Shown here one piece after another: positions 7,552 through 61,315 of a stretch of DNA of 64,000 bases; position 1 is the stretch's first letter, and each line of letters opens with the position of its first letter. The notes beneath the pieces are model-generated. The model saw only the letters and a list, made by a program, of their open reading frames with translations. It had not been told where the DNA came from and made no database searches. The DNA lies in the sequence record OZ346189.1; one strand, written 5' to 3'. The translations under genes were made by a program, and so were the position numbers. The DNA comes from a phage.

Positions 7552-7741
7552 GCTTAAATCTGCATGGAACATCGCTGTGGGGGACGAGATCCGCATCCCA
7601 GGTGGAAAGACCATTATGAAGATATCTCGTATCGAGTACGAAGGTGATCGTGTATTTCATATCTTTGCAGAAGATGGTCGAGAAATTTATATACAGGCAG
7701 GCTCTCACATCTATATTCGTAAGAAAGGGGACGACAAATGA
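7544..7741 (+). CDS. hypothetical protein
   Basis: ATG at 7544 after AAGGAGGG RBS (track ORF 7478..7741). Confidence 0.45.
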   Translation: MFKLKSAWNIAVGDEIRIPGGKTIMKISRIEYEGDRVFHIFAEDGREIYIQAGSHIYIRKKGDDK

Positions 7742-8067
7742 CAGAGATCATCATTTCAACTGCAGGGTATGTGTTCCTGACAATCATTGCACTGACCATT
7801 TTGGTGGTGGTATATGGAATTGTTATTCTCCCTATTCTTGAGACAATTAGTTTGTGTCGGTGTTGGAGAAAGGCTTACGGTCCACAGCCGTGGAAGGACT
7901 GGCCCCACCTGGTGCACATAGCGTTCTCTTATGCTTATGATCACGCCAGCAGTGCATGCATAACCGGGTATCACGCCCACAACTGGAGCTGGGAAGGGTT
8001 GAGGAAATGGAATGTTACAAAGACCATACCTCTGCGCATGTACAAACCTAAAAACAAAGACAGCTGA
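7738..8067 (+). CDS. hypothetical membrane protein
   Basis: hydrophobic N-terminal segment; start overlaps previous stop. Confidence 0.45.
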   Translation: MTEIIISTAGYVFLTIIALTILVVVYGIVILPILETISLCRCWRKAYGPQPWKDWPHLVHIAFSYAYDHASSACITGYHAHNWSWEGLRKWNVTKTIPLRMYKPKNKDS

Positions 8068-8099
8068 TACTTGAAAATCCCTGGCATATCAAGTGTAAG

Positions 8100-8600
8100 G
8101 AGGATTTCTAAAATGGATTTCCTCCTTTTGATATTTCACCGGGCCAGATATTTTAAAATTCTTAGAAAATCAGAAAATGGATCGAAAACTAAAATGGATT
8201 TTTCAAGACAGGCACGATAAGATGTGCTGCTCATTCTATCGTTCGCACCGTACTTTAAGTCACTATTCCAGATTTTTCCGCACATACTCTCACCCTTCTA
8301 CCAGAACTTTCCCAGCTTACCTCTGACCTTTTATAACAATAAGTCCATTATTATCAGAAAGTTTCGGCACATCTCTTTCGGTACTCGATCTGTTTTTCAT
8401 TTCAAAGACCTGATTTTCTGAAAATTTTTCTCGATAAATTTCTTAGTACTCGATCTGTTTTTCGTTTTCTGAATCGGATTTTCTGGAAATCGTTCCAGCC
8501 CTCGACCTGAAATTTTTGGGGACGAAATCGATTTTTCGTTTTCAGAAATGGATTTTTAAAATTTCTATATGGGAATATTTTATGGGATACTGTTTTATAG
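8100..8600. repeat. iteron-rich AT-rich non-coding region
   Basis: repeated short motifs (aaatggattt x4, tactcgatctgtttttc x2, cgatttttcgttttc) with no convincing ORF. Confidence 0.5.
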
Positions 8601-8617
8601 GAAATTGTTACGGAGGG

Positions 8618-8635
8618 TAATTAGCATGCTAATTA
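8618..8635. promoter_or_regulatory. perfect 18-bp palindrome TAATTAGCATGCTAATTA
   Basis: perfect inverted repeat seen directly; operator-like. Confidence 0.4.
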
Positions 8636-8671
8636 AATTTATTAAATGCGAGGAGTTCTCATTTAGAATTT

Positions 8672-8745
8672 TGAATGATAATCATTCTCGTTTGCAGAAT
8701 AACGGGCAGGCCCGGTGATTGTCTCCCGGCCCCTGTTGCCCCGGC
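8672..8745 (+). repeat. repeat element R1 (core GGCAGGCCCGGTGATTGTCTCCC at 8705..8727)
   Basis: related direct copy R2 at 8803..8880; inverted copy of the core at 18492..18514 (22/23 nt identical). Confidence 0.55.
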
Positions 8746-8802
8746 TTGTTATTATAGTATCACACAGGACAAAGAAAGCAAGGATTTTTTGCATAAATTT
8801 TT

Positions 8803-8880
8803 AAATGATAATGATAACCGTTCTCATTTTATGCAGCGCCCATCCCCGGTGGTTGTCTCCCCCGTCACCGGTGCCTGCCG
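8803..8880 (+). repeat. repeat element R2 (R1-like)
   Basis: shares AATGATAAT...TCTC.TTT...CCGGTG.TTGTCTCCC with R1. Confidence 0.5.
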
Positions 8881-9344
8881 TCCTTTCGATAGGTATATTG
8901 TGCCACCTGGCGGGGCCGCTGTCAACACTTCTTCAAAAATTTTTTCTAACATAATGCACCAACCGCTGCAACCTGGCGGGGCCAGCCTGGCAGGACCTGA
9001 CTGACCAGGTAGGAGAGAGTGAAAACTTGCAAACCTGGTAGGCCTATGCTACAGGGCAGGTAACAATTGAAGAGGAGGTACAAAAATGAAAAGTAATATA
9101 ATCCCCTGGAAAATGTAGCGATCAACGCCGCTGAAGTTATCACCCTGGTTGAAAAGGCTATGGCGGGAGCGTTGGAACATAAAGAAGAGTACGAAAAATG
9201 ATGGTTAACCTGGCAGGGGCGGCGGCTGGAGAATTCTTCCCAAAAAATAATTCTAACTAATGGTTGACAGCTCGGAGAGTTCTGTTATTCTTATCCTCGC
9301 AAGGTGAACAACACCACACTAATTAACAGAGAGGATAAAAAATC

Positions 9345-9542
9345 ATGAACGCCTACGGAATTAAAGTACGTCGCAACACTCACCAGGCCGTCACCGATCA
9401 AATGGTTTGCCAGGTGGACGTAACCATCAACAACGGGCAAGGCCTTTATAAATTCCGTCGCGGTCAGAGCTATACCCGGCAACAGCTTAATCGTTGCGCC
9501 CTGACAAAAGGCCAGATCAACCACTGGTTTAATAAAAAATAA
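9345..9542 (+). CDS. hypothetical protein
   Basis: ORF with AGAGGA RBS. Confidence 0.5.
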   Translation: MNAYGIKVRRNTHQAVTDQMVCQVDVTINNGQGLYKFRRGQSYTRQQLNRCALTKGQINHWFNKK

Positions 9543-9606
9543 GTATTGACATATAGTCTGACACCAAATACACTAAAAGCACAAAAGACACTAAGAGGAT
9601 AAAATC

Positions 9607-10005
9607 ATGAAAACCACTACCTTTAATTTTGATAATGCGGACTTTTCTTTTTCTGATGTCAAGAACTGCCGCCGGGATCGTGGATTTTACAAGGCTTATA
9701 ATCTGGTGGGCCTGGACGATGACAATAATTTGCACGAAGTAGCTGAGATCCGGTATTATGCCGCCGCCAGCGGGAACACTCAATACTGCGTTTTTTGGAT
9801 TCACGACAACAAGAACAATAAGTACGGTTATACTGGCGGGAAGGCGAGCGGTCACGGTTACGATAAAGCTAATGCAGCACTTGAGAGCGCATTAAATGCT
9901 ATGGGGATCACTGCCAACGGCTGGATCTATGAAGAAGAGTTTTTGTCGGCACTTGCTGACCACCTGGGCTATAAAAAGCACATTGTAACATGCGCCCACG
10001 AATAA
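9607..10005 (+). CDS. hypothetical protein
   Basis: ORF with TAAGAGGA RBS and upstream TTGACA promoter. Confidence 0.5.
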   Translation: MKTTTFNFDNADFSFSDVKNCRRDRGFYKAYNLVGLDDDNNLHEVAEIRYYAAASGNTQYCVFWIHDNKNNKYGYTGGKASGHGYDKANAALESALNAMGITANGWIYEEEFLSALADHLGYKKHIVTCAHE

Positions 10006-10011
10006 AAATTG

Positions 10012-10039
10012 TTGACACGCTGCAAAATTCAAGTAAACT
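10012..10039 (+). promoter_or_regulatory. sigma70-like promoter (TTGACA-16-TAAACT)
   Basis: hexamers upstream of ORF 10088. Confidence 0.4.
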
Positions 10040-10087
10040 AGTCACAAAAGGCGGGAATGTTTCCCGCCAACACAAAGGAAAAAGATC

Positions 10088-10492
10088 ATGAATAAGAACG
10101 TACGCCGCATCATGAACGAACTGGCAAACGATGAAAAAATTATTGACATGCATTTGATCAACATTTGCCGCCGTTGTGTAACATATAACAACCGCGCCGC
10201 AAAAGCGCGTGAGATGAACGCAAAAGGCACCTTAAAGCCATTCCAGGTGGTGGTAAAGGCCATTAAAGATGTAGCTAATACGGCAAACCAGGTACAGGGG
10301 AACACCAACGAGAGTACCAATATTGATCCGGCTTACATCATGAAACGGATCCGGACCTGCAAGAACAAAGAGCAAGTGTATAATGTCATAGACTGGTTGG
10401 ATTCTATGGGCGATGTGGTGTACAATAGATTCTCGGCAGCTATTGAGATCCAGCTTGACAGGTTAGACGGTAAAGTACTTAAAACTTACTAA
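10088..10492 (+). CDS. hypothetical protein
   Basis: ORF with AAAGGAAAAAG RBS. Confidence 0.5.
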   Translation: MNKNVRRIMNELANDEKIIDMHLINICRRCVTYNNRAAKAREMNAKGTLKPFQVVVKAIKDVANTANQVQGNTNESTNIDPAYIMKRIRTCKNKEQVYNVIDWLDSMGDVVYNRFSAAIEIQLDRLDGKVLKTY

Positions 10493-10493
10493 A

Positions 10494-10539
10494 TTTATTT
10501 TTAGATGGCCTTGACTCCAGGGCCATCAATAAAGTAAAT
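10494..10539 (+). promoter_or_regulatory. repeated hairpin-promoter element, copy 1
   Basis: TTTATTTTTAG + ATGGCC/GGCCAT stem with TTGACT in the loop, then CAATAAAGTAAAT; near-identical copies at 11117 and 14853. Confidence 0.45.
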
Positions 10540-10771
10540 TAATCTCAGCTAAGCGAAAAAGGGGGCTTTAAGATGAGCACTACACGCCAATACACAAAGG
10601 TAACTATTATCGCCTGCGTTGTCGGTTACATCCTGGCGCAAATGTTAATGAGTAGCGCTAACAGTTTTGCAAAATTTTTCTTAAATTTTTAATTGACAAG
10701 CTAACTTAGATTGATATACTTAAACACGTAAACGGGAAAACTTCCCAGAACACACAAAAGGAGAAAACACC

Positions 10772-11113
10772 ATGACTACTATGACCGCCGCAGAAAAAGC
10801 TATTCAGATCGCCGCACTGAAAAAACAGATCGCAGACCTTGAGAACAAGATCGATAACTTTGAAATCGACGAGGACAAGTACGACGAAAACTATGATGAA
10901 TGGTTAGACGAGATCTACGGCGAAATTATGATCGGAAACATTTCTTTTCTTCCGTCGCGTATCCTCAAGGAGCTAGATCCTATCACTTACCGCTGCGGAT
11001 TTAGCGACTACATCGACAGCCTGGATATTGAGGACGATGAAGAATACCAGGAATTACAGACAGAGTTAGAAGAAGCAAAAGAAGAGCTTGCAGAACTGGA
11101 AGAAAACGAGTAA
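10772..11113 (+). CDS. hypothetical highly acidic coiled-coil protein
   Basis: ORF with AAAGGAGAAAA RBS; runs of D/E (DEDKYDENYDEW, DIEDDEEYQELQTELEEAKEELAELEENE). Confidence 0.5.
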   Translation: MTTMTAAEKAIQIAALKKQIADLENKIDNFEIDEDKYDENYDEWLDEIYGEIMIGNISFLPSRILKELDPITYRCGFSDYIDSLDIEDDEEYQELQTELEEAKEELAELEENE

Positions 11114-11116
11114 GAT

Positions 11117-11159
11117 TATTTTTAGATGGCCTTGACTCCAGGGCCATCAATAAAGTAAA
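11117..11159 (+). promoter_or_regulatory. repeated hairpin-promoter element, copy 2
   Basis: near-identical to 10494..10539. Confidence 0.45.
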
Positions 11160-11202
11160 CTTTATACTGTTAACACTGAACTAATGCATAGGAGTTAAAA
11201 CC

Positions 11203-11448
11203 ATGGCAGCACTAATCACCAAATATTATGCCCCTACCAACACCAAAAGCGCCCGTATCATGGTAAAAGGCTTCGGACGTAAAAAGGTGTACACCTGGGA
11301 TTATGCCTTAGACACGGAAGACAACTACACCAACGCGATGACCGATTTTATTAATGATCTGAACACGCGGATCTTGACAAATTATAAAATTACCGATATT
11401 GCCTATATAGGGGAAGGCGGGATCTGTTTTGTCGGTATCGTCAAATAA
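11203..11448 (+). CDS. hypothetical protein
   Basis: ORF with TAGGAG RBS. Confidence 0.5.
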   Translation: MAALITKYYAPTNTKSARIMVKGFGRKKVYTWDYALDTEDNYTNAMTDFINDLNTRILTNYKITDIAYIGEGGICFVGIVK

Positions 11449-11523
11449 GCTGTTTTTTCGGTGGTCCTGGTAGCAGGGCCATCTATAAAGATAGTTTATC
11501 AATACAATGAAAGGAGAAAGTAC

Positions 11524-11877
11524 ATGATCAGCGGGGCAAGTTTTATTATTGGCGCTATTGCTACGGCTTTAATTGTAAACAAGATCCAATCTAAAAACGA
11601 AAAAGATAGCAACGCCCTTACAGAATACCCGTTTTGGGTATTCAACGACAATGAAGACTATATTATCAAGTACAAGAATGAGAAGGGCGACCAGGTAACA
11701 CCGCGACCGATCCCGGCTTACAAGATGCAAGAAACACTATACCGCCTAAAGGCTGGAGGCGCAAAAATCGTAGACTTTTGGGGATACGATCACACAGATC
11801 AGGAAGTTATAAAGCGCCGTATCCGGGCTATTCAGGCCAATATTGAAGTTAGCAAGGGGGGAATATATGAAGATTAA
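11524..11877 (+). CDS. hypothetical membrane-anchored protein
   Basis: ATG at 11524 after AAAGGAGAAAG RBS; N-terminal TM segment (track ORF 11461..11877). Confidence 0.45.
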   Translation: MISGASFIIGAIATALIVNKIQSKNEKDSNALTEYPFWVFNDNEDYIIKYKNEKGDQVTPRPIPAYKMQETLYRLKAGGAKIVDFWGYDHTDQEVIKRRIRAIQANIEVSKGGIYED

Positions 11878-12064
11878 TTTTGAGAAGATTGTAAAGCGAT
11901 CTCATGCTTCCGAAGAGCTGCCGGAACGCCGCCAGCGCAACAATAAACTGAATAAGCCAAAAAGATTTGGGAAGATCTGGCGGAATCATTATGATCGCAA
12001 ATTACCGGGCCTGCTTTTGGAACGTGAACGACAGGCGGAACGATACCGCCACAAAGGCAAATAA
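11867..12064 (+). CDS. hypothetical basic protein
   Basis: ATG at 11867 after AAGGGGGG RBS; K/R-rich. Confidence 0.4.
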   Translation: MKINFEKIVKRSHASEELPERRQRNNKLNKPKRFGKIWRNHYDRKLPGLLLERERQAERYRHKGK

Positions 12065-12071
12065 CAACCAA

Positions 12072-12100
12072 CGCCCCGCCATTGTGCGGGGCTTTTTATT
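12072..12100 (+). terminator. rho-independent terminator
   Basis: hairpin CCCCGC-cattgt-GCGGGG followed by TTTTT. Confidence 0.65.
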
Positions 12101-12245
12101 TCTATCCTACGAATAGCGCCCCCGGTTGGCCCTGTAAGCGCCAAAAAGGCCCCACCTATGCAATCGCCCCCCTTTAACCTGAAAACATCGCTTAGGGCCG
12201 TTTTATGGCGTTAAAAATATCATTGATAGTGATTTTATTTAAAGC

Positions 12246-12273
12246 TTGACATCTTAAACAGGTTAGCTATACT
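12246..12273 (+). promoter_or_regulatory. sigma70-like promoter (TTGACA-16-TATACT)
   Basis: hexamers upstream of ORF 12306. Confidence 0.45.
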
Positions 12274-12305
12274 AACCACATCAAAGAGAGAAAGGAGTAA
12301 ACGCC

Positions 12306-12566
12306 ATGCGTAAATTAAAAAATTTTGATAAAGTTGATGTTGTCCTGAATAATTTTTACTACTGCAACAACAAGGCCATTTGGTGGCGTGATAGTTCCAC
12401 CGATAAAGTCAAGGCGCGCTTTCTCCAGGGGCACTGGCAAGGCCGTCCAGTGATTAAAATCATGGGGCAATTGGTAGCGTTTAAAAATTGCCGCCGTGTT
12501 GATGACGTTGAGGAGATTTTAAACATTTTGCGCCACAATAATTTAAAAAATAGTGTTGACAAGTAA
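12306..12566 (+). CDS. hypothetical protein
   Basis: ORF with AAAGGAG RBS. Confidence 0.5.
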   Translation: MRKLKNFDKVDVVLNNFYYCNNKAIWWRDSSTDKVKARFLQGHWQGRPVIKIMGQLVAFKNCRRVDDVEEILNILRHNNLKNSVDK

Positions 12567-12583
12567 ATCTCAATAAGTATAAT
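12556..12583 (+). promoter_or_regulatory. consensus sigma70 promoter (TTGACA-16-TATAAT)
   Basis: perfect -35 and -10 hexamers upstream of ORF 12641. Confidence 0.55.
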
Positions 12584-12640
12584 TAAACACACAGGCGGGA
12601 AAACTTCCCGCCACTAACAAAGAAAACAGGAGAAAATATC

Positions 12641-13264
12641 ATGACCACCGTTAACATTACCACAGGTTACAATTTAGCTTTCGACGTGCTGACCGACGAA
12701 CAAAAAGAAAAAGCCGTTGAAATGGTCCGCGAAAGAGAAGAACACAGCGGGGATAACTTTTTTGCAGAAAGTGTAATTGAAGACTATAAAGAATATATCT
12801 TTCCAGAGTATGGCCTTGAAGATACCGAAGTACATTGGTCCGGCTTTTGGTGCCAGGGCGACGGCGCATCAATCAGTGCGGAAAACGTGGATTTAGAAAA
12901 ATTCTTGCGTAAAGTCAAGTCTCTGACTAAATTCCGCTCAATTCGTCACTTGTTCGGCACAATGCACGATGGCGAGCTATCCGCAAGTGTTGAGCGCGAT
13001 CCATATAGCCGTTATAGTCACGAAAACACTGTAAGCGGGTACATCGATACTACATGGCTAGACCTGACCGCCAAACAAGAAAACAAAGTGGAAGACCTGG
13101 AAGAACTGATCACCGAGACGGTACGGGAGCTATCCCGCAAGGTTTACGTAGACCTGGAGGAGGCCTATCTAGAACAGTTCACCGCAGAAAACCTGATCGG
13201 CCTTATCGAGGCCAATGATTGGCGGTTTGATGTCGATGAATATGGTGAGATGACTTTTTCATAA
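12641..13264 (+). CDS. hypothetical acidic protein
   Basis: 207-aa ORF with AGGAGAAAA RBS; no family recognised. Confidence 0.5.
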   Translation: MTTVNITTGYNLAFDVLTDEQKEKAVEMVREREEHSGDNFFAESVIEDYKEYIFPEYGLEDTEVHWSGFWCQGDGASISAENVDLEKFLRKVKSLTKFRSIRHLFGTMHDGELSASVERDPYSRYSHENTVSGYIDTTWLDLTAKQENKVEDLEELITETVRELSRKVYVDLEEAYLEQFTAENLIGLIEANDWRFDVDEYGEMTFS

Positions 13265-13354
13265 ATAAAGTGTTGCAATAGCCTAAAAACCTGCTATATT
13301 AAAACTCAAGGGGGCAAGACGTTTGCCCCCACACAAAACAAAGAGGAAAACATC

Positions 13355-13735
13355 ATGAAAAACACTACTAAAGCTATTGACACTGTTATGTTTAACCTGG
13401 TTACATTCCGTGAAGATATGAAAGATCTTCCACGTGAAACAGTGTGCGATCACATTGAAAACTATCGCAAACTAATCAAAGAGTTGCCTTTAAAACGTGA
13501 CCAGTATGCGGCTAACGCTATGCTTAACGCCATGATCAAAAAGATGATTCAGTGTGATTTAACTCTGGCCTATGATTATGCAGGTGGTCGTTTTGCAGTA
13601 TACAATCAGCCCGTGCCTGGTATGAGCACCACCGAAGAATTGCACGCGTTAAATCTGAAACAAGATGTATGGGATAACATGCCCCGCGTGGTGGTGTGGG
13701 CAGAAAGCGGAAAGATTTACGGCGATAATTTTTAA
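13355..13735 (+). CDS. hypothetical protein
   Basis: ORF with AAAGAGGAAAA RBS. Confidence 0.5.
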   Translation: MKNTTKAIDTVMFNLVTFREDMKDLPRETVCDHIENYRKLIKELPLKRDQYAANAMLNAMIKKMIQCDLTLAYDYAGGRFAVYNQPVPGMSTTEELHALNLKQDVWDNMPRVVVWAESGKIYGDNF

Positions 13736-13799
13736 TCAGGTAACAGGCGGCATATTTGCCGCCTTATTGTTAAACAGAACTGCAAAAGAGGTACATAGA

Positions 13800-14171
13800 A
13801 TGGAATTTATTATTTTGGCTGTAGTAGTTGCCTTGTTCAACGCCTGGATCGCTGGCAAGATAGGTAGATCCGCTTTTCTATGGTTTGTTATATCTATTTT
13901 CCTGGGAGTGGTTGCAACTATTGTATTGGTTATCCTTGCAATTGTTGACAAGGGCGATAATAGAAAGGGTAAAGTGTTTTCCGACCTGTATGACGCACAA
14001 ACGTTTGTCAACGCCTATTATAGTGATCTTCCAGTCTCCCTACGCTGCAGCCTGGCACAACAGGTTTTTGATGAGGCTAAAACCAGAGACCAAGCCCATG
14101 AGATATGTTTAACTGAAGCGGATCGCCTATTTGAGAGGAATAGAAAATATGTGGACCAGCCGTTTAAATAA
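13800..14171 (+). CDS. hypothetical membrane protein
   Basis: ATG at 13800 after AAGAGG RBS; two predicted TM helices (track ORF 13665..14171). Confidence 0.45.
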   Translation: MEFIILAVVVALFNAWIAGKIGRSAFLWFVISIFLGVVATIVLVILAIVDKGDNRKGKVFSDLYDAQTFVNAYYSDLPVSLRCSLAQQVFDEAKTRDQAHEICLTEADRLFERNRKYVDQPFK

Positions 14172-14511
14172 CGCCACGTTAATTAATCCCTTTAGTGAAG
14201 ATTTGAAGCCAGCCGCCTGGCGTGACGGATTCAATAACGAACGCTTTATTTTCAGGCCTGATCTTGAGGAATTTTATAACAATGGATCGAACAACAGCGG
14301 AGATAATTTTTCTTGTGGTGTGCGTGGTGATAGGACTCCTGGGGGCCATTGTAAACCACGTCACTACTAACAGGAGGGAAGGGGGAGACGATGACAACCA
14401 AGGATAAGCCATGCGCTGATAAGGTGCGCCGTGTTATGGTATGGCTTGAGATTATCGCCCTTGAAATATTGTTAGGCGTAGGGATGTACTTTATCGCTGT
14501 AAGTAACTAAG

Positions 14512-14545
14512 AGCGGCCCCCGATCATGGGGGCCTATCTTTTTAA
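14512..14545 (+). terminator. rho-independent terminator
   Basis: hairpin GGCCCCC-gatcat-GGGGGCC followed by a T run. Confidence 0.6.
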
Positions 14546-14649
14546 AAAATTTTTCTTCCGGGGTGTTGCAATCCGGTCCGGAATGTGGATAATAACAATC
14601 AACGGGGAGCTAATCCCCACCACCACAAAAACCAGAAAGGAGAAACAAA

Positions 14650-14850
14650 ATGAGCAACAATATCCGCGTTATTAACTTCAAAAAAGAAGAAAAAATTGCC
14701 GTGCTGATTGACGGTCAAGAAATCTTCAAGGGCGACTATGAAGATCATCAAACGGCGATTAGTATCACTCGCGTGATTGGTTATCATAATTTCTACCCCC
14801 AAGGCGCTGAGGCAGCAGTTAAACGAATCAAAGAGATTGTAGGCCTGTAA
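14650..14850 (+). CDS. hypothetical protein
   Basis: ORF with AAAGGAGAAA RBS. Confidence 0.5.
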   Translation: MSNNIRVINFKKEEKIAVLIDGQEIFKGDYEDHQTAISITRVIGYHNFYPQGAEAAVKRIKEIVGL

Positions 14851-14852
14851 AA

Positions 14853-14898
14853 TTTATTTTTAGATGGCCTTGACTTCAGGGCCATCGATAAAGTAAAT
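14853..14898 (+). promoter_or_regulatory. repeated hairpin-promoter element, copy 3
   Basis: near-identical to 10494..10539 (TTGACTTCAGGGCCATCGATAAAGTAAAT). Confidence 0.45.
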
Positions 14899-14943
14899 TT
14901 AAACCCTGTTAAAATACCACGCAGTTAACAAGGAGTGATAGAC

Positions 14944-15243
14944 ATGTTTATCCAGGCTAATAATCTTTATTTCTTTGATGGTCAGATCGTAGATGGTGTG
15001 GAAGTGGAGATCACCGGGTGCCCTGGCGGTCAGGCTATGACTTTTCGGAATAATGCCTTTGATGATTCTCATATCGTTATGAGAATGGAAGTTACGAAGC
15101 TGGACGACAAGAAAACACTTATTGACTATTCTGTGAAAGATCATCCAGACTACCGCATGATCCATGGTGATTTGTGCATTGTTGACCGTGACAAGGTGGG
15201 CGGCATTGTGATCGCTATTGTGAACGATGTTTTCTCAAACTAA
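14944..15243 (+). CDS. hypothetical protein
   Basis: ATG at 14944, 11 nt after AAGGAG. Confidence 0.5.
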   Translation: MFIQANNLYFFDGQIVDGVEVEITGCPGGQAMTFRNNAFDDSHIVMRMEVTKLDDKKTLIDYSVKDHPDYRMIHGDLCIVDRDKVGGIVIAIVNDVFSN

Positions 15244-15260
15244 TTTCAGCAGGCGATTTT

Positions 15261-15611
15261 ATGAAAGTCAAACTATATTACCTTAATGAGCTTAACCCCC
15301 TTGCCCAGGTCCGCGCCCTAGCTAATACCTTGATTTGTGAGAAATCTGTATATTGTGTTGAGCTTAACGCCATGCGTGAACGTCTCAAAGGTGGTTACTT
15401 TGACATCCATGCTGCAATCAACGGCCTGAATATGGAATTTATACGCTTACGTAACAGCCGCCGGAATCTGGCAAGAATGGAACAAGATCCGGCCCACCTT
15501 CGTAAGCTGGTTATTGAAAATCATCTGATGTTTAATGCCGAGGGTGATTATTACCATTTTCACCGCAAACGCTGGTACCGTGGCGGCAATACAGGCAAGA
15601 ATGCAAAATAA
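15261..15611 (+). CDS. hypothetical protein
   Basis: ORF. Confidence 0.45.
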   Translation: MKVKLYYLNELNPLAQVRALANTLICEKSVYCVELNAMRERLKGGYFDIHAAINGLNMEFIRLRNSRRNLARMEQDPAHLRKLVIENHLMFNAEGDYYHFHRKRWYRGGNTGKNAK

Positions 15612-15647
15612 GGCCCCTAGCAGGGCCTGCAGCAATATAATCACATA

Positions 15648-15680
15648 AAGGCCATGCGGTTGCATGGCCTTTATTATTTT
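15648..15680 (+). terminator. rho-independent terminator
   Basis: 10-bp stem AAGGCCATGC/GCATGGCCTT followed by a T-rich tract. Confidence 0.65.
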
Positions 15681-15813
15681 GGCGTTACAACGGCATACGG
15701 GGCGCTTAAAAAATTTTTAAAGAAGTACTTGCATCATTCCCGACAATATGGATAATAAGAGTTGTCGAGGGGGAGGCCCCCAATCGTTGACCAGATAGAT
15801 AGGAGTTAAAATC

Positions 15814-16098
15814 ATGGCTATTGTTACCGCTGGCGATGTAGTAGAAATGGAAGCAAAATACTTAAAAGCGGGTATGCACATCCTACGGAATGATCAAGAG
15901 TTATTATTAACGATGGTTGACTATAATCACGGCCAGGATTATCCAAGCATCGACTACTTTTTTGAGTATGTTGATGAAGAGTTGAAAGAGGATGAGGCCT
16001 ATTGCGGTGAGTTCTGCAACTTCTTTTGTCCTGATGAGGTTGTAAAGGTTATTTATCAACCTGGCGTAGCTTTCCCGCTGCACGCTATCAATAAATAA
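15814..16098 (+). CDS. hypothetical protein
   Basis: ORF with TAGGAG RBS. Confidence 0.5.
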   Translation: MAIVTAGDVVEMEAKYLKAGMHILRNDQELLLTMVDYNHGQDYPSIDYFFEYVDEELKEDEAYCGEFCNFFCPDEVVKVIYQPGVAFPLHAINK

Positions 16099-16153
16099 AC
16101 CTGGCGGGGCCGAAAAGGCCCCCAATTATGAAAATAAAGAGAGGCAAATCATC

Positions 16154-16387
16154 ATGATGGAACAAATTAAACGCGCCGAGGCTATTAATGGCAACGTGAT
16201 CTATTTTGTCAGCAAAAACGAAAAAGGCGTACCATATGCGGCAGTAATAGTACAACCTGACGGCGATTATTGGTTTACTGTGTACGGCGCTTATTCTTTT
16301 GGGCGTCCAGTGCATGATAAAATTTTGAAAGTAGCGAACCCTACCGGGAAGAATATCACAGCAGAAAAATTTTTTGAAAATAGTTGA
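16154..16387 (+). CDS. hypothetical protein
   Basis: ORF with AAAGAGAGG RBS. Confidence 0.5.
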   Translation: MMEQIKRAEAINGNVIYFVSKNEKGVPYAAVIVQPDGDYWFTVYGAYSFGRPVHDKILKVANPTGKNITAEKFFENS

Positions 16388-16462
16388 CATGACCATATAA
16401 GACTGTAATATATAAATCAAAGGGGGCAACTAACCCCACCAACTACAAAGAGGATAAAAATC

Positions 16463-16642
16463 ATGGCTATTATTGCAAAGACTGAGATCGTAGGCTTAGA
16501 TTCTATTCTCCTCGCATATGAGGAAGCTATAGAAATGTATGTGGTTTCCTATGGTGAGTATATCCGTGAATATAAATCTATTGATCTGGCTTTTGAATGT
16601 TATATCCGCCAGGTTAATAAAGCGTACGATGATTATCGTTAA
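16463..16642 (+). CDS. hypothetical small protein (59 aa, below the ORF-track cutoff)
   Basis: ATG after AAAGAGGATAAAAA RBS and TTGACA-16-TAATAT promoter at 16384..16411. Confidence 0.4.
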   Translation: MAIIAKTEIVGLDSILLAYEEAIEMYVVSYGEYIREYKSIDLAFECYIRQVNKAYDDYR

Positions 16643-16729
16643 AATAGTTTGACAACAGCCATCTTACAAAGCATAATACATAAGGCGGTGGAATGGTCCG
16701 CCACCTGGAACAAAGAAGAGGTAAACACC

Positions 16730-16975
16730 ATGAAAAGCAATAAAGGTTATAACGGTTACAAAAACAAAACTCATTGGAATGTAAGCCTTTGGATTAATAA
16801 CGATGAGTCATTGTACCGGTTGGCCCAAGGCTTTATTAACGCCAATGCTAATCGTAATGATGCGGCGCGGGATATGATGCTTTTTCTGGAGCTAACCGGA
16901 CAAGATAAGACCCCGGACGGCTTCAAGTACAGCACTACGGCGATCCGTGCCGCGATGGTTGGAATGAAACACTAA
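16730..16975 (+). CDS. hypothetical protein
   Basis: ATG at 16730 after AAGAGG RBS (track ORF 16649..16975). Confidence 0.45.
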   Translation: MKSNKGYNGYKNKTHWNVSLWINNDESLYRLAQGFINANANRNDAARDMMLFLELTGQDKTPDGFKYSTTAIRAAMVGMKH

Positions 16976-17166
16976 AAGCACATAGCTGCCTTACCCTGGG
17001 GCTGTGGTAGCGGCCCCATGAATAAGGTTACTAACAGAAGAGAATAAACACCATGAAACAGAAATTAATCGATGCAGTGATCTTGGTTATTGCCCTGGGT
17101 ATTGGCCTGATTGCAACCATGTCTAATATGATCTTGTCTTCCAACGGTATCGGGTGAGGTTGGCAA

Positions 17167-17382
17167 ATGATCACTAACAAAACAGGCAAAACGGAATTTT
17201 TACGCAACTTACAGATCGGCAAGCCTGAGATCTGGTACTGCACTAAAACACCACGTGACGAAATGAAAGACTTCACCGCCACGCTGCAACGGGTAAAGAT
17301 ATCTATCACGCAGAAAAAGGCCTTACTAGTGGTGGAAGGGGAGATCCCCCAAACCGTTGTTATAGTTGAGCGTACAGCATAG
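17167..17382 (+). CDS. hypothetical protein
   Basis: ORF. Confidence 0.4.
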   Translation: MITNKTGKTEFLRNLQIGKPEIWYCTKTPRDEMKDFTATLQRVKISITQKKALLVVEGEIPQTVVIVERTA

Positions 17383-17473
17383 TTTAATTTATACAGATAC
17401 CTGAAAATTAACCAACAAAGCATAAACAGGCGGTTACCGCCGCCTTAAACGTAGCAGAAAGAGGATAGACACA

Positions 17474-17758
17474 ATGAAAAAGATGATCGCAGTGGTTACC
17501 CTGGTTGTTGGACTTAATGCGCCTGTAATGGCTAAAGAGCTGGCAAAAGAGGTTAATCTAACGGATATTCATGCCGTCAATCAAATCGGGGTTACTTATC
17601 GCTTATGCCTTGCCGCTAAAACTTTTAAGGACGGCACAACAGAGTACTACGGATTCGAGGGTATCCGGTGCGGTGAGCTTGCTCGCGACCTTAAGGAAGA
17701 TCCAGACCTGGAGGATCTGCCCATAACCGTGAACGGAAAAACTTACGTGAACCGTTAA
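17474..17758 (+). CDS. hypothetical secreted/periplasmic protein
   Basis: N-terminal signal peptide (MKKMIAVVTLVVGLNAPVMA); AAAGAGGA RBS. Confidence 0.5.
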   Translation: MKKMIAVVTLVVGLNAPVMAKELAKEVNLTDIHAVNQIGVTYRLCLAAKTFKDGTTEYYGFEGIRCGELARDLKEDPDLEDLPITVNGKTYVNR

Positions 17759-18092
17759 CCATGAGAAAGATAATTATTACCATGGGGATCGTGGCGGCAA
17801 TGTTGGCGATCTTTCCCTTTATGGTTAGGTATGTGCTGATTAATGTTGTCCTGGTAGTCAGCGATCTGGTGTTATATATTAACTCATTGTTTTAGGCGCG
17901 ATAATGACAGCGGAAGAAGTTAAAAAAAGTACTGGCGGTACTGCGTTATCATAATCATTGCAAGGTGAAGAATGATCCTGATTATCTTGATTCATCCCTT
18001 GAAGAGGATACACTACAAGCCATAAGCAACATGCAAGAATTGCTTAAGCGTATGACAGAGAAAAACCGACCGGACTACATAGGGGGTAAAAT

Positions 18093-18404
18093 ATGATCGC
18101 TATTACGCCAACCGTTTTAGATTGGTATCGGCAACGCATAGCGCCTCCGCTGGCTATCTTCAAAGATGCGGAAGCAAAACAACGCCGGATCTCAATACAT
18201 GAGATCATCAACCTTAACGCTGGAGGCACACCATACCGCCCAGGACCTGGCCGTGAGATGGACAATACATTGGCGATCCTGAAGATACGCCGTAAACGGT
18301 CCTCCCTTACGCTGGATTCATTACACACAATGCAGTCCCCGTTCCAGGTGACTGGGAAACGGATCGCCAGGTCCTGGACAAAGGCCAATGACCGGACCGT
18401 ATAA
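18093..18404 (+). CDS. hypothetical protein
   Basis: ORF with GGGGG RBS; preferred over the antisense ORF 18044..18568. Confidence 0.45.
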   Translation: MIAITPTVLDWYRQRIAPPLAIFKDAEAKQRRISIHEIINLNAGGTPYRPGPGREMDNTLAILKIRRKRSSLTLDSLHTMQSPFQVTGKRIARSWTKANDRTV

Positions 18405-18491
18405 ATAAAAAGTGTTTTGGTACTGATTTTGGGGTTGACTTGTTCGGCCCCTTTTGCTATTCTTATTAAACGGGCGGCACTTGGGAACAGG

Positions 18492-18514
18492 GGGAGACAA
18501 TCACCAGGCCTGCC
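18492..18514 (-). repeat. inverted copy of the R1 core (GGCAGGCCTGGTGATTGTCTCCC on the minus strand)
   Basis: 22/23 nt identical to 8705..8727 in inverted orientation. Confidence 0.55.
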
Positions 18515-18539
18515 TGTCATATAAGAACTATAAAAACCG

Positions 18540-18568
18540 TTGACATCTGCCAGGGGGTGGGGTAACAT
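18540..18568 (+). promoter_or_regulatory. sigma70-like promoter (TTGACA-17-TAACAT)
   Basis: hexamers upstream of ORF 18623. Confidence 0.4.
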
Positions 18569-18622
18569 TTATCTTGAAGGGGCAAAGGTGCCCACACAAC
18601 AACCAGAAGAGAGGAAAACACT

Positions 18623-18895
18623 ATGTCAAGCTGGATTAATCAAGAAGTCGAATCACGTTTTAATGCTATTTGGGATCTCATCGAAAAAGAAGACGGCACA
18701 TCAAGCCCCTACCTCAACAATTTGGAATTCCATTTTGTGGAAGCGATGAACGCAGAACATGATCACGAAGGTGGTGCGGACGAGTTCGCTAAAGGGTATG
18801 GCTTCAACAATGCCAACGAAATGATCGAGGCGGTTGTACTCCAGGCTGAGGAAGATTATCAATTAAAAACGCTTGAATTCTGCCGCCGTAAGTAA
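18623..18895 (+). CDS. hypothetical acidic protein
   Basis: ORF with AGAGAGGAAAA RBS. Confidence 0.5.
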   Translation: MSSWINQEVESRFNAIWDLIEKEDGTSSPYLNNLEFHFVEAMNAEHDHEGGADEFAKGYGFNNANEMIEAVVLQAEEDYQLKTLEFCRRK

Positions 18896-18955
18896 TAAGA
18901 TAATGACACGGGCCGGGAGGCCCACTAATCAGAACCACACAAAGAGGTAAACATC

Positions 18956-19219
18956 ATGAAACGTCTTGATCAGCTTAAACTAGTTCAGTACATGGCCTAC
19001 AAAGTTCTTGAAGTCCAAAAAGGTAGCAAAAAAGAGGTTTGCGAGAAAGCATATAAGATCTTTACCCGTAAAAAAGATGATTGGATGTTACGCCAGACCA
19101 AAAAAGCCGATATCCTGGGATACCTGGAAGAAGAGATCCGACTTGAAGAACAAGAAGAGATCCGCCGTAGTGAGGCAGATTATCAGGCAGCTTGGGAAAA
19201 CTGGATGAGCAACAAATAA
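18956..19219 (+). CDS. hypothetical protein
   Basis: ORF with AAAGAGG RBS. Confidence 0.5.
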   Translation: MKRLDQLKLVQYMAYKVLEVQKGSKKEVCEKAYKIFTRKKDDWMLRQTKKADILGYLEEEIRLEEQEEIRRSEADYQAAWENWMSNK

Positions 19220-19285
19220 TACAACAAGTTACATGGTCAGGGGCAATAAAGCCCCTTGATCACATAAAAATTATGCTATCCCTGG

Positions 19286-19314
19286 TTGACAGGGATCGGC
19301 AGTTTTGCTATATT
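19286..19314 (+). promoter_or_regulatory. sigma70-like promoter (TTGACA-17-TATATT)
   Basis: hexamers upstream of ORF 19364. Confidence 0.45.
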
Positions 19315-19363
19315 CTTTTTTGAAGGGAAGTTGTAAGAAAATTAACTAAGAGGTAAAAACACC

Positions 19364-19783
19364 ATGAACATTAAATCTAATAATCCGGCATATAGCTTTG
19401 ATAACGCTTTTTGTCACGGTCCGGCGGCGAAAGGATTCGAAATCGATGGTAAACTAATTATTGTCAATGTTGACGGGGAAGAGGTTGCAGTATATCCGGT
19501 GGCAGACGTAAAAAGCCGTTTACAATGCCGCATGGATGTTACCGCCTATCAGCTTGATCCGGTCCGCATAGTTGCCCTGGTCCTGGAAGAAGAAATTAAA
19601 GCCATGCACCATAGCAACAGATTTATTGGTGACGCGCAGGATAATATGAAAGTATGCCGCCATAAAGTTAATGAAGTGCTTAAAGAGTACGGCTATAAAG
19701 ATCTTATGATCAAACGTGAGGAAAAATTCCGCTACCGTAACGACCTGGCAAATCGGATTTTTGAAATATACGAATCATTATAA
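19364..19783 (+). CDS. hypothetical protein
   Basis: ORF with TAAGAGG RBS. Confidence 0.5.
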   Translation: MNIKSNNPAYSFDNAFCHGPAAKGFEIDGKLIIVNVDGEEVAVYPVADVKSRLQCRMDVTAYQLDPVRIVALVLEEEIKAMHHSNRFIGDAQDNMKVCRHKVNEVLKEYGYKDLMIKREEKFRYRNDLANRIFEIYESL

Positions 19784-19801
19784 TTTTTTAACTGAATTAT
19801 C

Positions 19802-19826
19802 AAGGGGCTTAGGCCCCTTTCTTTTT
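19802..19826 (+). terminator. rho-independent terminator ending the plus-strand block
   Basis: hairpin AAGGGGC-tta-GCCCCTT followed by TTTCTTTTT. Confidence 0.65.
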
Positions 19827-20212
19827 GTCTGCTCTTCCTCCTACCACAAACGGCCCAGCCTGGCAAGTGGAATAATTGACTAGCCATCAATCCCACACAC
19901 TGTACAAATATACATGGAAAATAACTATTGCATAATTTTTCATTGTGTGGTAGCAGGTCCATTTTTACCCGTTTTCTCTCTCAAAATTGCACGTAATGCC
20001 GCTATTGCACAAAATTTAACCTGATGCACATCTTCAATATCTTGTCAACAACTAAAAATCTTTATAAGTCATACACTTACACACTCACAAAAGCGTGTTC
20101 TACGTGAAAAATCGAGTATAACTATAGCCGCCAGATCTCAGAATTTACAAAGGCCATCATTAAAGCTTCAGTAAAATCAGTCATTCCTCACCTCTTGTTA
20201 GTCACTATACTA

Positions 20213-20476
20213 TCATTTATCCTTGTCGTCAAGAACTTTTTTAAATCTTTCAGGGATATCTCCCGTTCTTAGATAGTTCATGACCTCGCAAGGTTCCCAC
20301 TTGAATTTCTTACAGAGCAGGGCGGCTGAGATTGTTTCATTGCGAAAAGAAAGGATATTAATATCCCACTCTGAGAACCCCAACTTCCGAAGGGTAGCTA
20401 CAGAAATCCTCACCGCAACCCAGCAGCAAAAACATGCAACAAACGCCACTGCTACAACCCACATCAGGATGTTCAT
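20213..20476 (-). CDS. hypothetical membrane protein
   Basis: ORF with N-terminal TM segment. Confidence 0.4.
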   Translation of the reverse strand: MNILMWVVAVAFVACFCCWVAVRISVATLRKLGFSEWDINILSFRNETISAALLCKKFKWEPCEVMNYLRTGDIPERFKKVLDDKDK

Positions 20477-20565
20477 ATAAGCACCTTACTGAAATACAAG
20501 ACACAGTGTTAAGGTTACTGACCAGCAAATAATTAACAGTGCCGTTGCAACCTTGGCAAGATTTA

Positions 20566-61210: not shown

Positions 61211-61308
61211 AGCTAGGTAAGCCCTTTGGCAAGGGCGAGGATTTTTAATCCTGAAAATAGACGAGGTAGTCGTTGAATACATAGGTGGTTCGATTCCATC
61301 ACCTAGCA
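61211..61308 (+). tRNA. atypical tRNA-like sequence (anticodon loop reads TTTTTAA, possibly Lys-TTT) with an approximately 30-nt insertion in the variable region
   Basis: acceptor GCTAGGT/ACCTAGC, D-arm GCCC/GGGC and T-arm GGTGG-TTCGATT-CCATC are recognisable; anticodon stem has only 4 bp; no encoded CCA. Confidence 0.3.
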
Positions 61309-61315
61309 CCTTTTT

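Follow-up and report, generated by a model that had tools for sequence, protein, structure and literature searches.

The window, the whole 64-kb stretch of DNA examined here, derives from a Vequintavirus (rV5-like) phage of E. coli. Towards its left end lie a 1-kb non-coding region (8068-9086) and a block of small plus-strand genes, and a 23-nt sequence, GGCAGGCCCGGTGATTGTCTCCC, present at 8705-8727 on the plus strand recurs with a 22/23 match at 18492-18514 on the minus strand. The features concerned are as follows.

8371-8556: three iteron-like direct repeats with cores of 47-50 nt at spacings of 65 and 74 nt, carrying GTACTCGATC; 35% GC
8557-8694: AT-rich stretch between element copy A and the iterons, 27.5% GC, containing the palindrome TAATTAGCATGCTAATTA
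8671-8695: Fur-box-like palindrome just downstream (RNA sense) of copy A, matching GATAATGATAATCATTATC at 15/19 and 14/19; second-best region in the 64 kb
8695-8754, minus strand: element copy A (profile 56.8 bits, E 1.3e-16; 60% GC), whose core 8705-8727 forms the left repeat arm
8751-8778, minus strand: promoter-like site of copy A, TATAAT at 8756-8751 with a weak -35 (CTTTCT) and a 16-nt spacer; 8/12, the -10 ending 25 nt before the motif
8801-8831: Fur-box-like sequence just downstream (RNA sense) of copy B, with the window's highest match, 16/19, at 8807-8825
8833-8882, minus strand: element copy B, core GGGGGAGACAACCACCGGGG (profile 32.7 bits, E 4.4e-9, and an alignment; 74% GC)
8897-8925, minus strand: promoter-like site of copy B, TTGACA-17-CACAAT with an upstream TG; 10/12
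9345-19783, plus strand: conserved block of 24 small ORFs (at least 60 aa) with host-like codon usage
18435-18463, plus strand: promoter-like site of copy C, TTGACT-17-TATTCT with TG, the -10 ending 30 nt before the motif
18464-18524, plus strand: element copy C (profile 47.5 bits, E 1e-13), whose core 18492-18514 forms the right repeat arm
19802-19819, plus strand: terminator-like hairpin ending the block, from the terminator scan

The inverted repeat with one mismatch described in the earlier note is real and exceeds chance (0 of 100 shuffled sequences gave two 23-mer matches), and at 90% identity it lengthens to 29 nt (8699-8727 and 18492-18520). With a sequence profile, an element of about 60 nt with the core GGGAGACAAYCACC was found in exactly three copies in the 64 kb, the next-best match reaching only 4.4 bits. 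The related copy suspected at 8803-8880 was thereby placed at 8833-8882 on the minus strand as copy B. Copies B and A stand in tandem on the minus strand inside the non-coding region, and copy C lies on the plus strand within the gene block.

The same note had taken the intervening DNA for an accessory island and proposed that the repeats mark a recombination-prone cassette, a mobile or invertible segment, or shared regulatory RNA structures. An inverted repeat of 23-29 nt enclosing genes that differ in codon usage would suit a cassette that is mobile, invertible or prone to recombination, with the repeats as its ends, and short inverted repeats around some 10 kb recall the Gin, Cin and Hin invertible segments and transposons bounded by inverted repeats. 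In contrast to those systems, no recombinase or transposase was seen in 20 ORFs compared with PHROG, all of which fell in phage-only families of unknown function, nor in ten proteins compared with Pfam (nine from the block and the left-hand neighbour, ORF 7738-8067), where no match was obtained; the repeats are flanked by no target-site duplication, their outer flanks TTTGCAGA and ATAAGAAC being unrelated; and neither inversion nor presence/absence polymorphism occurred among the relatives' records compared. Positions 8000-20500, junctions included, were collinear on one strand with 92-100% cover in the 26 best records, and cover was at least 80% in 56 records, in one place each. Of the two observations that would together have refuted the note's reading, one was thus made: related genomes across Vequintavirus carry the segment with identical junctions. 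Its codon usage, however, does differ from the flanks. The arrangement of a minus-strand copy A and a plus-strand copy C, separated by 8-10.6 kb, was also found in rV5, Mt1B1_P17 and nepoznato, and both element and layout are kept in the Vequintavirinae and in another subfamily, the Stephanstirmvirinae. In Phapecoctavirus, which shares the layout, the core of copy A, GAGACAAACACC, differs from that of copy C, GAAGAUAAUCACC, indicating that identity of the repeat arms is not maintained. Nor do the repeats bracket the block, since copy C is internal to it, with three host-like ORFs (18623-19783) further to the right. Hence, it is highly improbable that the repeats are the ends of a cassette, and the island and mobile-segment readings are not supported.

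Each copy is instead read in the GAGACAA sense from a predicted sigma70-type promoter of its own, the element lying 25-37 nt downstream of the -10 box in the three copies of the window. The TATAAT of copy A is kept in rV5, isim, L021 and L032, the site of copy B is one of only two strong minus-strand sites within the plus-strand part at 1-20 kb, and the -35 of copy C falls in the loop of a terminator-like hairpin (18431-18451). Among 34 distinct elements, an upstream promoter match of at least 9/12 was present in 22 in the sense orientation compared to two in antisense, and the distance from the -10 end to the motif was 25-31 nt in 28. Judged from these promoters, which are consensus matches only, the 12-mer GAGACAAYCACC would start approximately 20-30 nt into the predicted transcript in the GAGACAA sense. 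The inverted orientation of copies A and B relative to copy C arises because they are paralogous units transcribed in opposite directions, and they are therefore not terminal repeats. The 23-nt inverted repeat is thus probably the core of a promoter-linked unit occurring three times rather than the two ends of a mobile or invertible island.

Conservation of the element extends far beyond the genus. In unannotated intergenic regions of Phapecoctavirus, Justusliebigvirus, Mydovirus, Seunavirus and Certrevirus it was found with a DNA identity of 72-89%, and likewise in those of phages of Erwinia, Serratia and Pectobacterium. With the copies at a fixed promoter distance and in the same sense, the evidence favours shared regulatory RNA structures among the three options of the first reading.

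The predicted folding points in the same direction. In 11 sequences belonging to other genera, 89.8% of the closing helix was paired, compared to 24-56% when slid, and this helix holds nine G.U cells that pair only in the GAGACAA sense. The hairpin 5' of the motif was 85% paired (36-58% when slid) and is capped by GGAA, GCGA, GGGA, GAAA or GUGA loops; in copy C, the hairpin CACUUG-GGAA-CAGGGG lies immediately 5' of GAGACAAUCACC. From this we infer that the element acts as RNA in the 5' part of a transcript, where a closing helix and a small, often GNRA-capped hairpin would abut an exposed conserved 12-mer. The sense strand folded slightly better than the antisense strand in 21 of 34 elements (p = 0.04), the mean folding z-score was only -1.0, and RNAalifold on MAFFT alignments recovered almost no structure. 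The fold is not settled, for the sequence 5' of the motif could pair with upstream or, alternatively, with downstream partners.

Conservation is mainly one of primary sequence, and covariation is weak: a double change was seen in one pair only per tested helix, and column shuffles equalled the observed score in 186-188 of 500 runs. Together with the fixed promoter distance and the linkage of the element to iterons and palindromes, which are DNA-binding sites, this would agree with a site acting at the DNA level, where the 12-mer at about +20 to +32 binds a phage or host protein, such as an iteron-binding initiator or a repressor at promoter clearance, and RNA structure is irrelevant. We consider this unlikely, as the GNRA-type loops and G.U pairs occur in the sense strand only, the helices flanking the motif remain paired despite sequence differences between genera, and the element always has the same orientation to the promoter, a constraint not needed by a symmetric operator.

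A promoter for each unit, a 12-mer shared by two or three copies, and a motif kept across genera without coding potential could also describe a trans-acting small RNA. An SD-like GGAG lies within the motif, whose sequence also recalls the SD-plus-spacer of the phage itself. A short hairpin RNA might expose GAGACAAUCACC early in infection as a seed or decoy for host or phage RNA, or titrate a protein. However, no intrinsic (Rho-independent) terminator or terminator-like site was found behind copy A, B or C on the sense strand, which gives the element the appearance of a leader rather than of a stand-alone small RNA. Moreover, no complementary target was enriched within the window, where a search for the 23-mer with up to three mismatches returned the copies alone and near-matches to a 13-mer scarcely exceeded chance (41 compared to 27.8). 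A trans-acting role is accordingly doubtful. Scanning the whole window against Rfam 15 at gathering thresholds detected tRNAs only, E-value scans of 8050-9100 and 18380-18640 gave chance-level matches only, and no description of the element was found in the literature; it is thus a candidate family absent from Rfam.

The put RNA of phage HK022 suppresses pausing and termination through the zinc-binding domain of the RNA polymerase beta' subunit. The putL and putR sites encode short structured, non-coding RNAs right behind early sigma70 promoters and in opposite orientation (PMC9378689). Our element is likewise non-coding, about 60 nt long, located directly behind sigma70-like promoters and present in several copies of opposite orientation, and transcripts from the promoters of copies A and B (PA and PB) would run across iterons and protein-binding palindromes. 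A nascent element that binds host RNA polymerase might therefore render it resistant to pauses, terminators and protein roadblocks. In contrast to put, which consists of two long stems of about 70 nt, the element is predicted to form a single closed helix; its profile found no match in the HK022 PL-putL region, and it has no sequence similarity to putL. In the window, no minus-strand genes follow copies A and B and no terminator separates copy C from the end of its unit at 19802. In addition, half of the members have A at position W, so that conservation of the -10-like hexamer GACAAT is lacking. Altogether, a put-like cis-acting function appears even less probable than the DNA-level or trans-acting ones.

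The surroundings of copies A and B provide a further context for the element. In the GAGACAA sense, both copies point through AT-rich DNA and Fur-box-like palindromes towards the three iterons, and the GC content falls from 60-74% in the elements to 27% immediately downstream and 35% in the iterons. Three direct repeats and an adjoining AT-rich stretch, as in iteron-type origins, were thus found at 8371-8694. Homologous iterons are present in SSE121, CR3 and the uncultivated contig L014, and the element is followed downstream by iterons in the window, in SSE121 and CR3, and in the contigs L014, L018, L042 and L031. These four contigs, which carry similar promoter-element-iteron modules, were found by the motif search itself, and the profile cannot tell L014 and L018 from chance coding matches; L014 has three element copies, a Fur-like box and an iteron resembling that of CR3.

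Transcription-activated or RNA-primed origins are exemplified by the primary origin of T7, with tandem promoters and an AT-rich stretch, by oriE and oriF of T4, and by RNA II of ColE1. In a similar manner, the tandem PB and PA aim into AT-rich DNA and iterons, and a GC-rich structured RNA would open the transcript. The 12-mer has no counterpart in those origins, however, and the third copy lacks iterons. Our preferred mechanism, in itself less likely than not, is an origin-like control region with transcription from PB and PA. Host RNA polymerase would start at the two promoters, make a GC-rich structured RNA and then enter the AT-rich and iteron DNA, where the transcript could activate replication or serve as its primer, or could be recognised through the 12-mer by a factor of the phage or the host; copy C would represent a second site of the same type. 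Since neither iterons nor a Fur-like box adjoin copy C, it fits a pure origin role poorly. Relatives also possess a separate non-coding box of 2.6 kb, which has other iterons and is mostly absent from the window, and this box could equally be the origin. The best reading makes the element a new RNA motif, of a leader or another non-coding RNA, that lies close to its promoter and is tied to a control region resembling an origin, with the mechanism itself inferred.

Ten Fur-like sites of at least 14/19 occur in the window, compared to 3.4 in shuffled sequence, and the two best (16/19 and 15/19) adjoin copies B and A. The palindrome next to copy A recurs in conserved, near-perfect form as AATGAGAATCATTCTCATT beside the element in CR3, SSE121, BIS47, Mt1B1 and L022. 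In contrast to Fur-controlled small RNA promoters such as that of ryhB, the boxes are located downstream of the element and of its own promoter and not over it; a weak promoter-like site on the opposite strand, TTGAAT-18-CAGAAT, was seen across the Fur-like box by eye only, antisense scores being at most 8/12. The boxes may be sites for a phage protein, and they offer a handle on whether these lytic phages sense host iron. A bolder proposal, which we regard as unlikely in its entirety, is that the 'GAGACAA-CACC' element represents a class of phage non-coding RNA not described before, which host RNA polymerase makes as soon as infection begins, that it is integral to an iteron-type replication or control module common to Vequintavirinae, Stephanstirmvirinae and uncultivated phages unrelated to them, among these a 328-kb contig, and that the Fur-box-like palindromes make this module iron-responsive.

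Non-coding RNA has precedent in this subfamily, as the Certrevirus phage PhiTE carries a pseudo-ToxI locus in intergenic DNA (PMC3475682). That locus is similarly non-coding and intergenic in an rV5-like phage, but it is a tandem 36-nt repeat mimicking a type III antitoxin and lies elsewhere, whereas our element is not tandemly repeated. A ToxI-like sequence was not found in the PhiTE record (L038), which carries an A-type copy of the element. The rV5-like and phAPEC8-like phages are broad-host-range therapy candidates whose early regions are annotated almost entirely as 'hypothetical' and whose origins and early regulation are unmapped, and a conserved promoter-linked element beside iterons and Fur-like boxes gives experiments a concrete point of entry to the question of where replication or early control begins.

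As for the gene block, the description of about 25 small genes with promoters and terminators of their own agrees with its 24 ORFs, eleven plus-strand sigma70-like sites (at least 10/12) and several terminator-like hairpins, but promoter density is equal elsewhere in the window. Transmembrane- or signal-like segments were seen in three of the 24 ORFs. The block is more GC-rich only weakly (GC 0.443 compared to 0.41-0.448; GC3 0.478 compared to 0.39-0.44). Its enterobacterial codon usage was, in contrast, clearly borne out, the RSCU correlation with an E. coli K-12 codon table being 0.725 compared to 0.32, 0.23, 0.15 and 0.00 in the other gene blocks. The RSCU distance between block and rest was 0.318 against a null of 0.132 +/- 0.017 (reached in 0 of 500), and the per-gene codon difference from the left-hand plus-strand block was also significant (p = 4e-4). 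AGA and ACA codons are depleted in the block, and the phage encodes tRNA-Arg(TCT) and tRNA-Thr(TGT) at 60.7-61.4 kb. Because the codons served by the phage's own tRNAs are the ones depleted, the simplest explanation of the host-like usage is that the block is translated with the tRNA pool of the host, and the 10-kb block thereby presents a clean within-genome partition of translational strategy.

The inverted repeat on which an earlier note had built its proposal of an accessory island is real. The 23-mer at 8705-8727 on the plus strand recurs on the minus strand at 18492-18514 with one mismatch, two such matches were never found in shuffled sequences, and a repeat finder extended the match to 29 nt at 90%. 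When the three places named in that note were aligned in the orientation that reads GGGAGACAA, similarity continued well beyond the 23-mer, and a profile built from 16 homologues identified exactly three copies of an element of about 60 nt in the 64 kb:

8695-8754, minus strand: element copy A, profile match
8833-8882, minus strand: element copy B, profile match
18464-18524, plus strand: element copy C, profile match

The conserved motif GGAGACAAWCACC within the repeat (8714-8726 and 18493-18505) resembles the phage's own Shine-Dalgarno sequence and spacer without the start codon (AGGAGAAAACACC-ATG, as at the gene start at 10756-10779), and near-matches to it are weakly enriched (41 vs 27.8 expected).

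A record comparison returned 316 phage records matching the stretch 8000-20500, led by Escherichia phage A6-1 (96.7% over 100%) and followed by inoa, rV5 variants and rV5; because these are the best matches, the window is a Vequintavirus (rV5-like) myovirus of E. coli. The rV5 counterpart of the region is ORFs 198-164 in transcription unit '10-1-238-164'. The segment and both flanks are collinear and on one strand, with a cover of 92-100% in the 26 best records, and the segment is covered to at least 80% in 56 records. No target duplication was found, the outer flanks of the repeats being unrelated. The stretch from 9345 to 19783 (hereafter the block) contains 24 ORFs of 60 aa or more, three of which have transmembrane- or signal-like segments. 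All 20 ORFs scanned fell into phage-only PHROG families of unknown function and Pfam gave zero matches for ten proteins (nine from the block and the left-hand neighbour ORF), thus providing no sign of host genes, a recombinase or a transposase. A- and C-type copies also lie on opposite strands, 8-10.6 kb apart, in rV5, and this layout recurs in Stephanstirmvirinae, namely in Mt1B1_P17 (at 13.2 kb / 2.65 kb) and in nepoznato (at 73.6 kb / 65.8 kb). The A and C cores of Phapecoctavirus are not the same (GAGACAAACACC vs GAAGAUAAUCACC), indicating that identity of the arms is not what is maintained. An invertible segment or transposon was therefore rejected, since every defining test except the inverted repeat failed, and the mobile or invertible island is refuted. 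Among the readings offered in the earlier note, only a shared regulatory RNA survives, for which the RNA folding itself is suggestive.

The impression, gained by eye, that the block has a more GC-rich and enterobacterial codon usage was borne out for codon usage, while the higher GC is marginal. The region is not distinguished by its windowed GC (0.40-0.47), and coding GC was 0.443 in the block vs 0.41-0.448 elsewhere, with a GC3 of 0.478 vs 0.39-0.44. The RSCU distance between the block and all other genes was 0.318, compared to 0.132 +/- 0.017 in a resampling null (0 of 500), and the shift was also seen against the neighbouring plus-strand block at 1-8.1 kb (p = 4e-4). When RSCU was compared with an E. 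coli K-12 codon table, the correlation was 0.725 in the block and 0.32, 0.23, 0.15, and 0.00 in the four remaining gene blocks. Codons CGC, GGC, AGC, GCC, and ACC were up and AGA, ACA, CCT, TCT, and GCA down, and copy C lies inside this codon-usage block. The phage carries tRNA-Arg(TCT) and tRNA-Thr(TGT) genes at 60.7-61.4 kb; AGA and ACA, codons of these tRNAs, are depleted in 9345-19783 and enriched in the rest of the window. One genome here holds two gene sets, one host-tRNA-adapted and one phage-tRNA-adapted. In the same tRNA cluster, a tRNA called by ARAGORN at 61212-61310 has an anticodon of four bases (atcc) and scores only 35.5 bits with the Rfam tRNA model; it may contain an intron, be frameshift-suppressor-like or be degenerate. 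Promoter density as a sign of an 'immediate early' block was rejected, since the coding strand is just as rich in strong sigma70-like sites throughout the window, and these thus do not single out the block. Such sites on the coding strand were likewise noted in rV5 (PMC3606486).

The element is conserved in the unannotated, otherwise diverged intergenic DNA of many phages.

Phages carrying the element
Phapecoctavirus: Mt1B1_P17, ZCKP1, ESCO37, nepoznato
Justusliebigvirus: KKP_3264; also Antha, unclassified in its record, with the same GAAGAUAAUCACC variant
Mydovirus: BIS47
Seunavirus: SSE121, 4MG
Certrevirus: CR3, CR9, KaOmega, DU_PP_IV, PhiTE
Others: Erwinia phage Hena1, Salmonella phage SSBI34

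Scanning IMG/VR for the exact pattern yielded more members as well as four lineages that are uncultivated, L014 (86 kb), L018 (328 kb), L031 (183 kb), and L042 (93 kb), of which L014 and L018 are, with a sequence-only profile, not separable from chance coding matches pre-selected by the motif. A PHROG scan gave the neighbours of the element in distant contigs no useful identity. E. coli genomes and plasmids held no similar sequence except one rV5-like phage filed as a plasmid, no Rfam family matched the element in scans at gathering and at E-value thresholds, and a literature search returned nothing relevant on the motif, sRNA, non-coding RNA, origin, Fur box, iterons or transcriptomes in these phages.

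The sense of the element was assessed on 34 distinct elements. A sigma70-like promoter matching at least 9/12 positions lay upstream in 22/34 elements on the sense strand vs 2/34 on the antisense strand, and the -10 box ended 25-31 nt ahead of the motif in 28/34. The promoter-like sites in the window are as follows:

PB, serving copy B: TTGACA-17-CACAAT, consensus match
PC, serving copy C: TTGACT-17-TATTCT, consensus match
PA, serving copy A: consensus TATAAT with a poor -35

A window scan found no intrinsic terminator on the sense strand after A, B or C. The conserved 12-mer, its fixed promoter distance and its sense are the firmest facts obtained. A 50-nt module recurring at 10491-10540, 11112-11161, 11447-11496, and 14850-14899 forms a terminator-like hairpin (GATGGCC...GGCCATC) whose loop holds the -35 TTGACT of the next promoter, and the sequence upstream of copy C (18431-18463) has the same design. 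The motif ACCTGGCGGGGCC, which contains a CCWGG site, occurs at 8901-8917, 8967-8983, and 16095-16111, two of these sites being just upstream of the copy B promoter.

A closing helix between the first 8 nt after the predicted start and the last 8 nt of the element was assessed in 11 A-type sequences of other genera, where 89.8% of its cells were paired, compared to 24-56% in the slid control, with AU/GC/GU alternation at one pair and nine G.U cells where the other strand would have A.C. The C- and B-type copies showed a hairpin of 4-6 bp ending exactly at the start of GAGACAA (85% paired vs 36-58% slid), with loops GGAA, GCGA, GGGA, GAAA, and GUGA. Double changes were limited to one pair in each of the two tested helices, and of 500 column shuffles, 186-188 attained the observed helix score. 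When all copies, or the C-type copies, were aligned with MAFFT, RNAalifold recovered no more than 3-6 trivial pairs, as the registers of the 5' arms differ. The sense strand was slightly more stable than the antisense in 21/34 elements (p = 0.04), with a mean folding z of -1.0, and, judged by eye, the sequence immediately 5' of the motif is able to pair either upstream or downstream. Since covariation is scant, RNAalifold near-null and the 5' segment open to alternative pairings, folding of the element as RNA is suggestive, not proven.

The put RNAs of phage HK022 similarly lie behind early promoters with copies in opposite orientation (PMC9378689). In contrast, the HK022 putL region has no similarity to the element profile, and nowhere in the window is there a need for antitermination beyond A, B or C. 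The element may work like put, but it is not a member of the put family. The antisense of its core (GGTGATTGTCTCC) slightly resembles ToxI (AGGTGATTTGCTACC). PhiTE, a Certrevirus, carries a non-coding pseudo-ToxI RNA (PMC3475682), but this is a different, tandem-repeat locus. ToxI and pseudo-ToxI were rejected, as the element has no tandem repeat and no match in the PhiTE locus. The hairpin with AUAAUCACCG is loosely like the end of the I-E repeat, and a CRISPR-repeat mimic (RNA anti-CRISPR) was dropped as this likeness is loose only. A T7-type primase site, a DnaA box, a sigma70-dependent pause (-10-like GACAAT) and ops each suit only some variants and were also dropped.

Copies A and B lie in a control region (8068-9086) with no convincing ORF. 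In RNA sense it reads PB, B (74% GC), an AT-rich stretch (27% GC) with the best Fur-box match of the window (16/19 at 8807), PA, A (60% GC), a second AT-rich stretch (27.5% GC) with the next-best Fur-box region (15/19 at 8671), and three iteron-like repeats containing GTACTCGATC (8371-8556). This order is kept in other genera, where the near-perfect palindromes AATGAGAATCATTCTCATT number two to four and the iterons GGGTCTCGATCG...CGTATTCTC number three; in Certrevirus a palindrome of the same kind follows even the C-type copy. Direct repeats again lie downstream of the element in the uncultivated contigs. L014 (1480-3380) has three element copies, two tandem and one divergent, together with a Fur-like GATAACTATTCTCATTT and iterons GGTCTCGACAGATTTTCAC resembling those of CR3, yet shows no BLAST similarity to any known phage, and the module thus seems to travel as a unit.

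The recurrent module of promoter, GC-rich leader, AT-rich palindromes and iterons is as would be expected of a transcription-activated origin, for which T7, T4 oriE and ColE1 are the comparison systems, or of a similar control region. Several points speak against a role purely as an origin: the window's copy C is without iterons, and in rV5 a separate non-coding box of 2.6 kb carries different iterons and additional Fur-like boxes, most of this box being absent from the window (junction 20148/20150). The best description of the element is that of a new motif, a conserved promoter-proximal leader or non-coding RNA, with three paralogous copies and a link to an origin-like control region; its identity and orientation are well supported, and we infer its mechanism.

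A perfect 18-bp palindrome, TAATTAGCATGCTAATTA, lies at 8620-8637 within the AT-rich stretch between A and the iterons. The first ORF after the control region (9087-9119) has a strong RBS and stops after 10 codons, and phage isim annotates a 59-aa CDS (isim_29) at the matching place; the ORF at 9087 may be a pseudogene or a mis-annotation. In the control region of Phapecocta-, Mydo-, Seuna- and Certrevirus, a further GC-rich element (...GCCGTGGGGTGGCG...) is conserved and follows a promoter-like site of its own on the minus strand (L003 1660-2090, L004 1660-2020, L005 1610-1980, L006 1610-1760), and that of Phapecocta-, Mydo- and Seunavirus contains an ORF of about 60 aa on the minus strand (an annotated one in L003 and L004, an ORF reading in L005); neither was seen in the control region of the window. 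Compared to rV5 and most relatives, about 4.5 kb is missing at 20148-20150 (12983-17504 in rV5 locus L001), corresponding to ORFs 156-163 and most of the rV5 'non-coding' box, which holds GT(G/A)AACAGT iterons and further Fur-like boxes.
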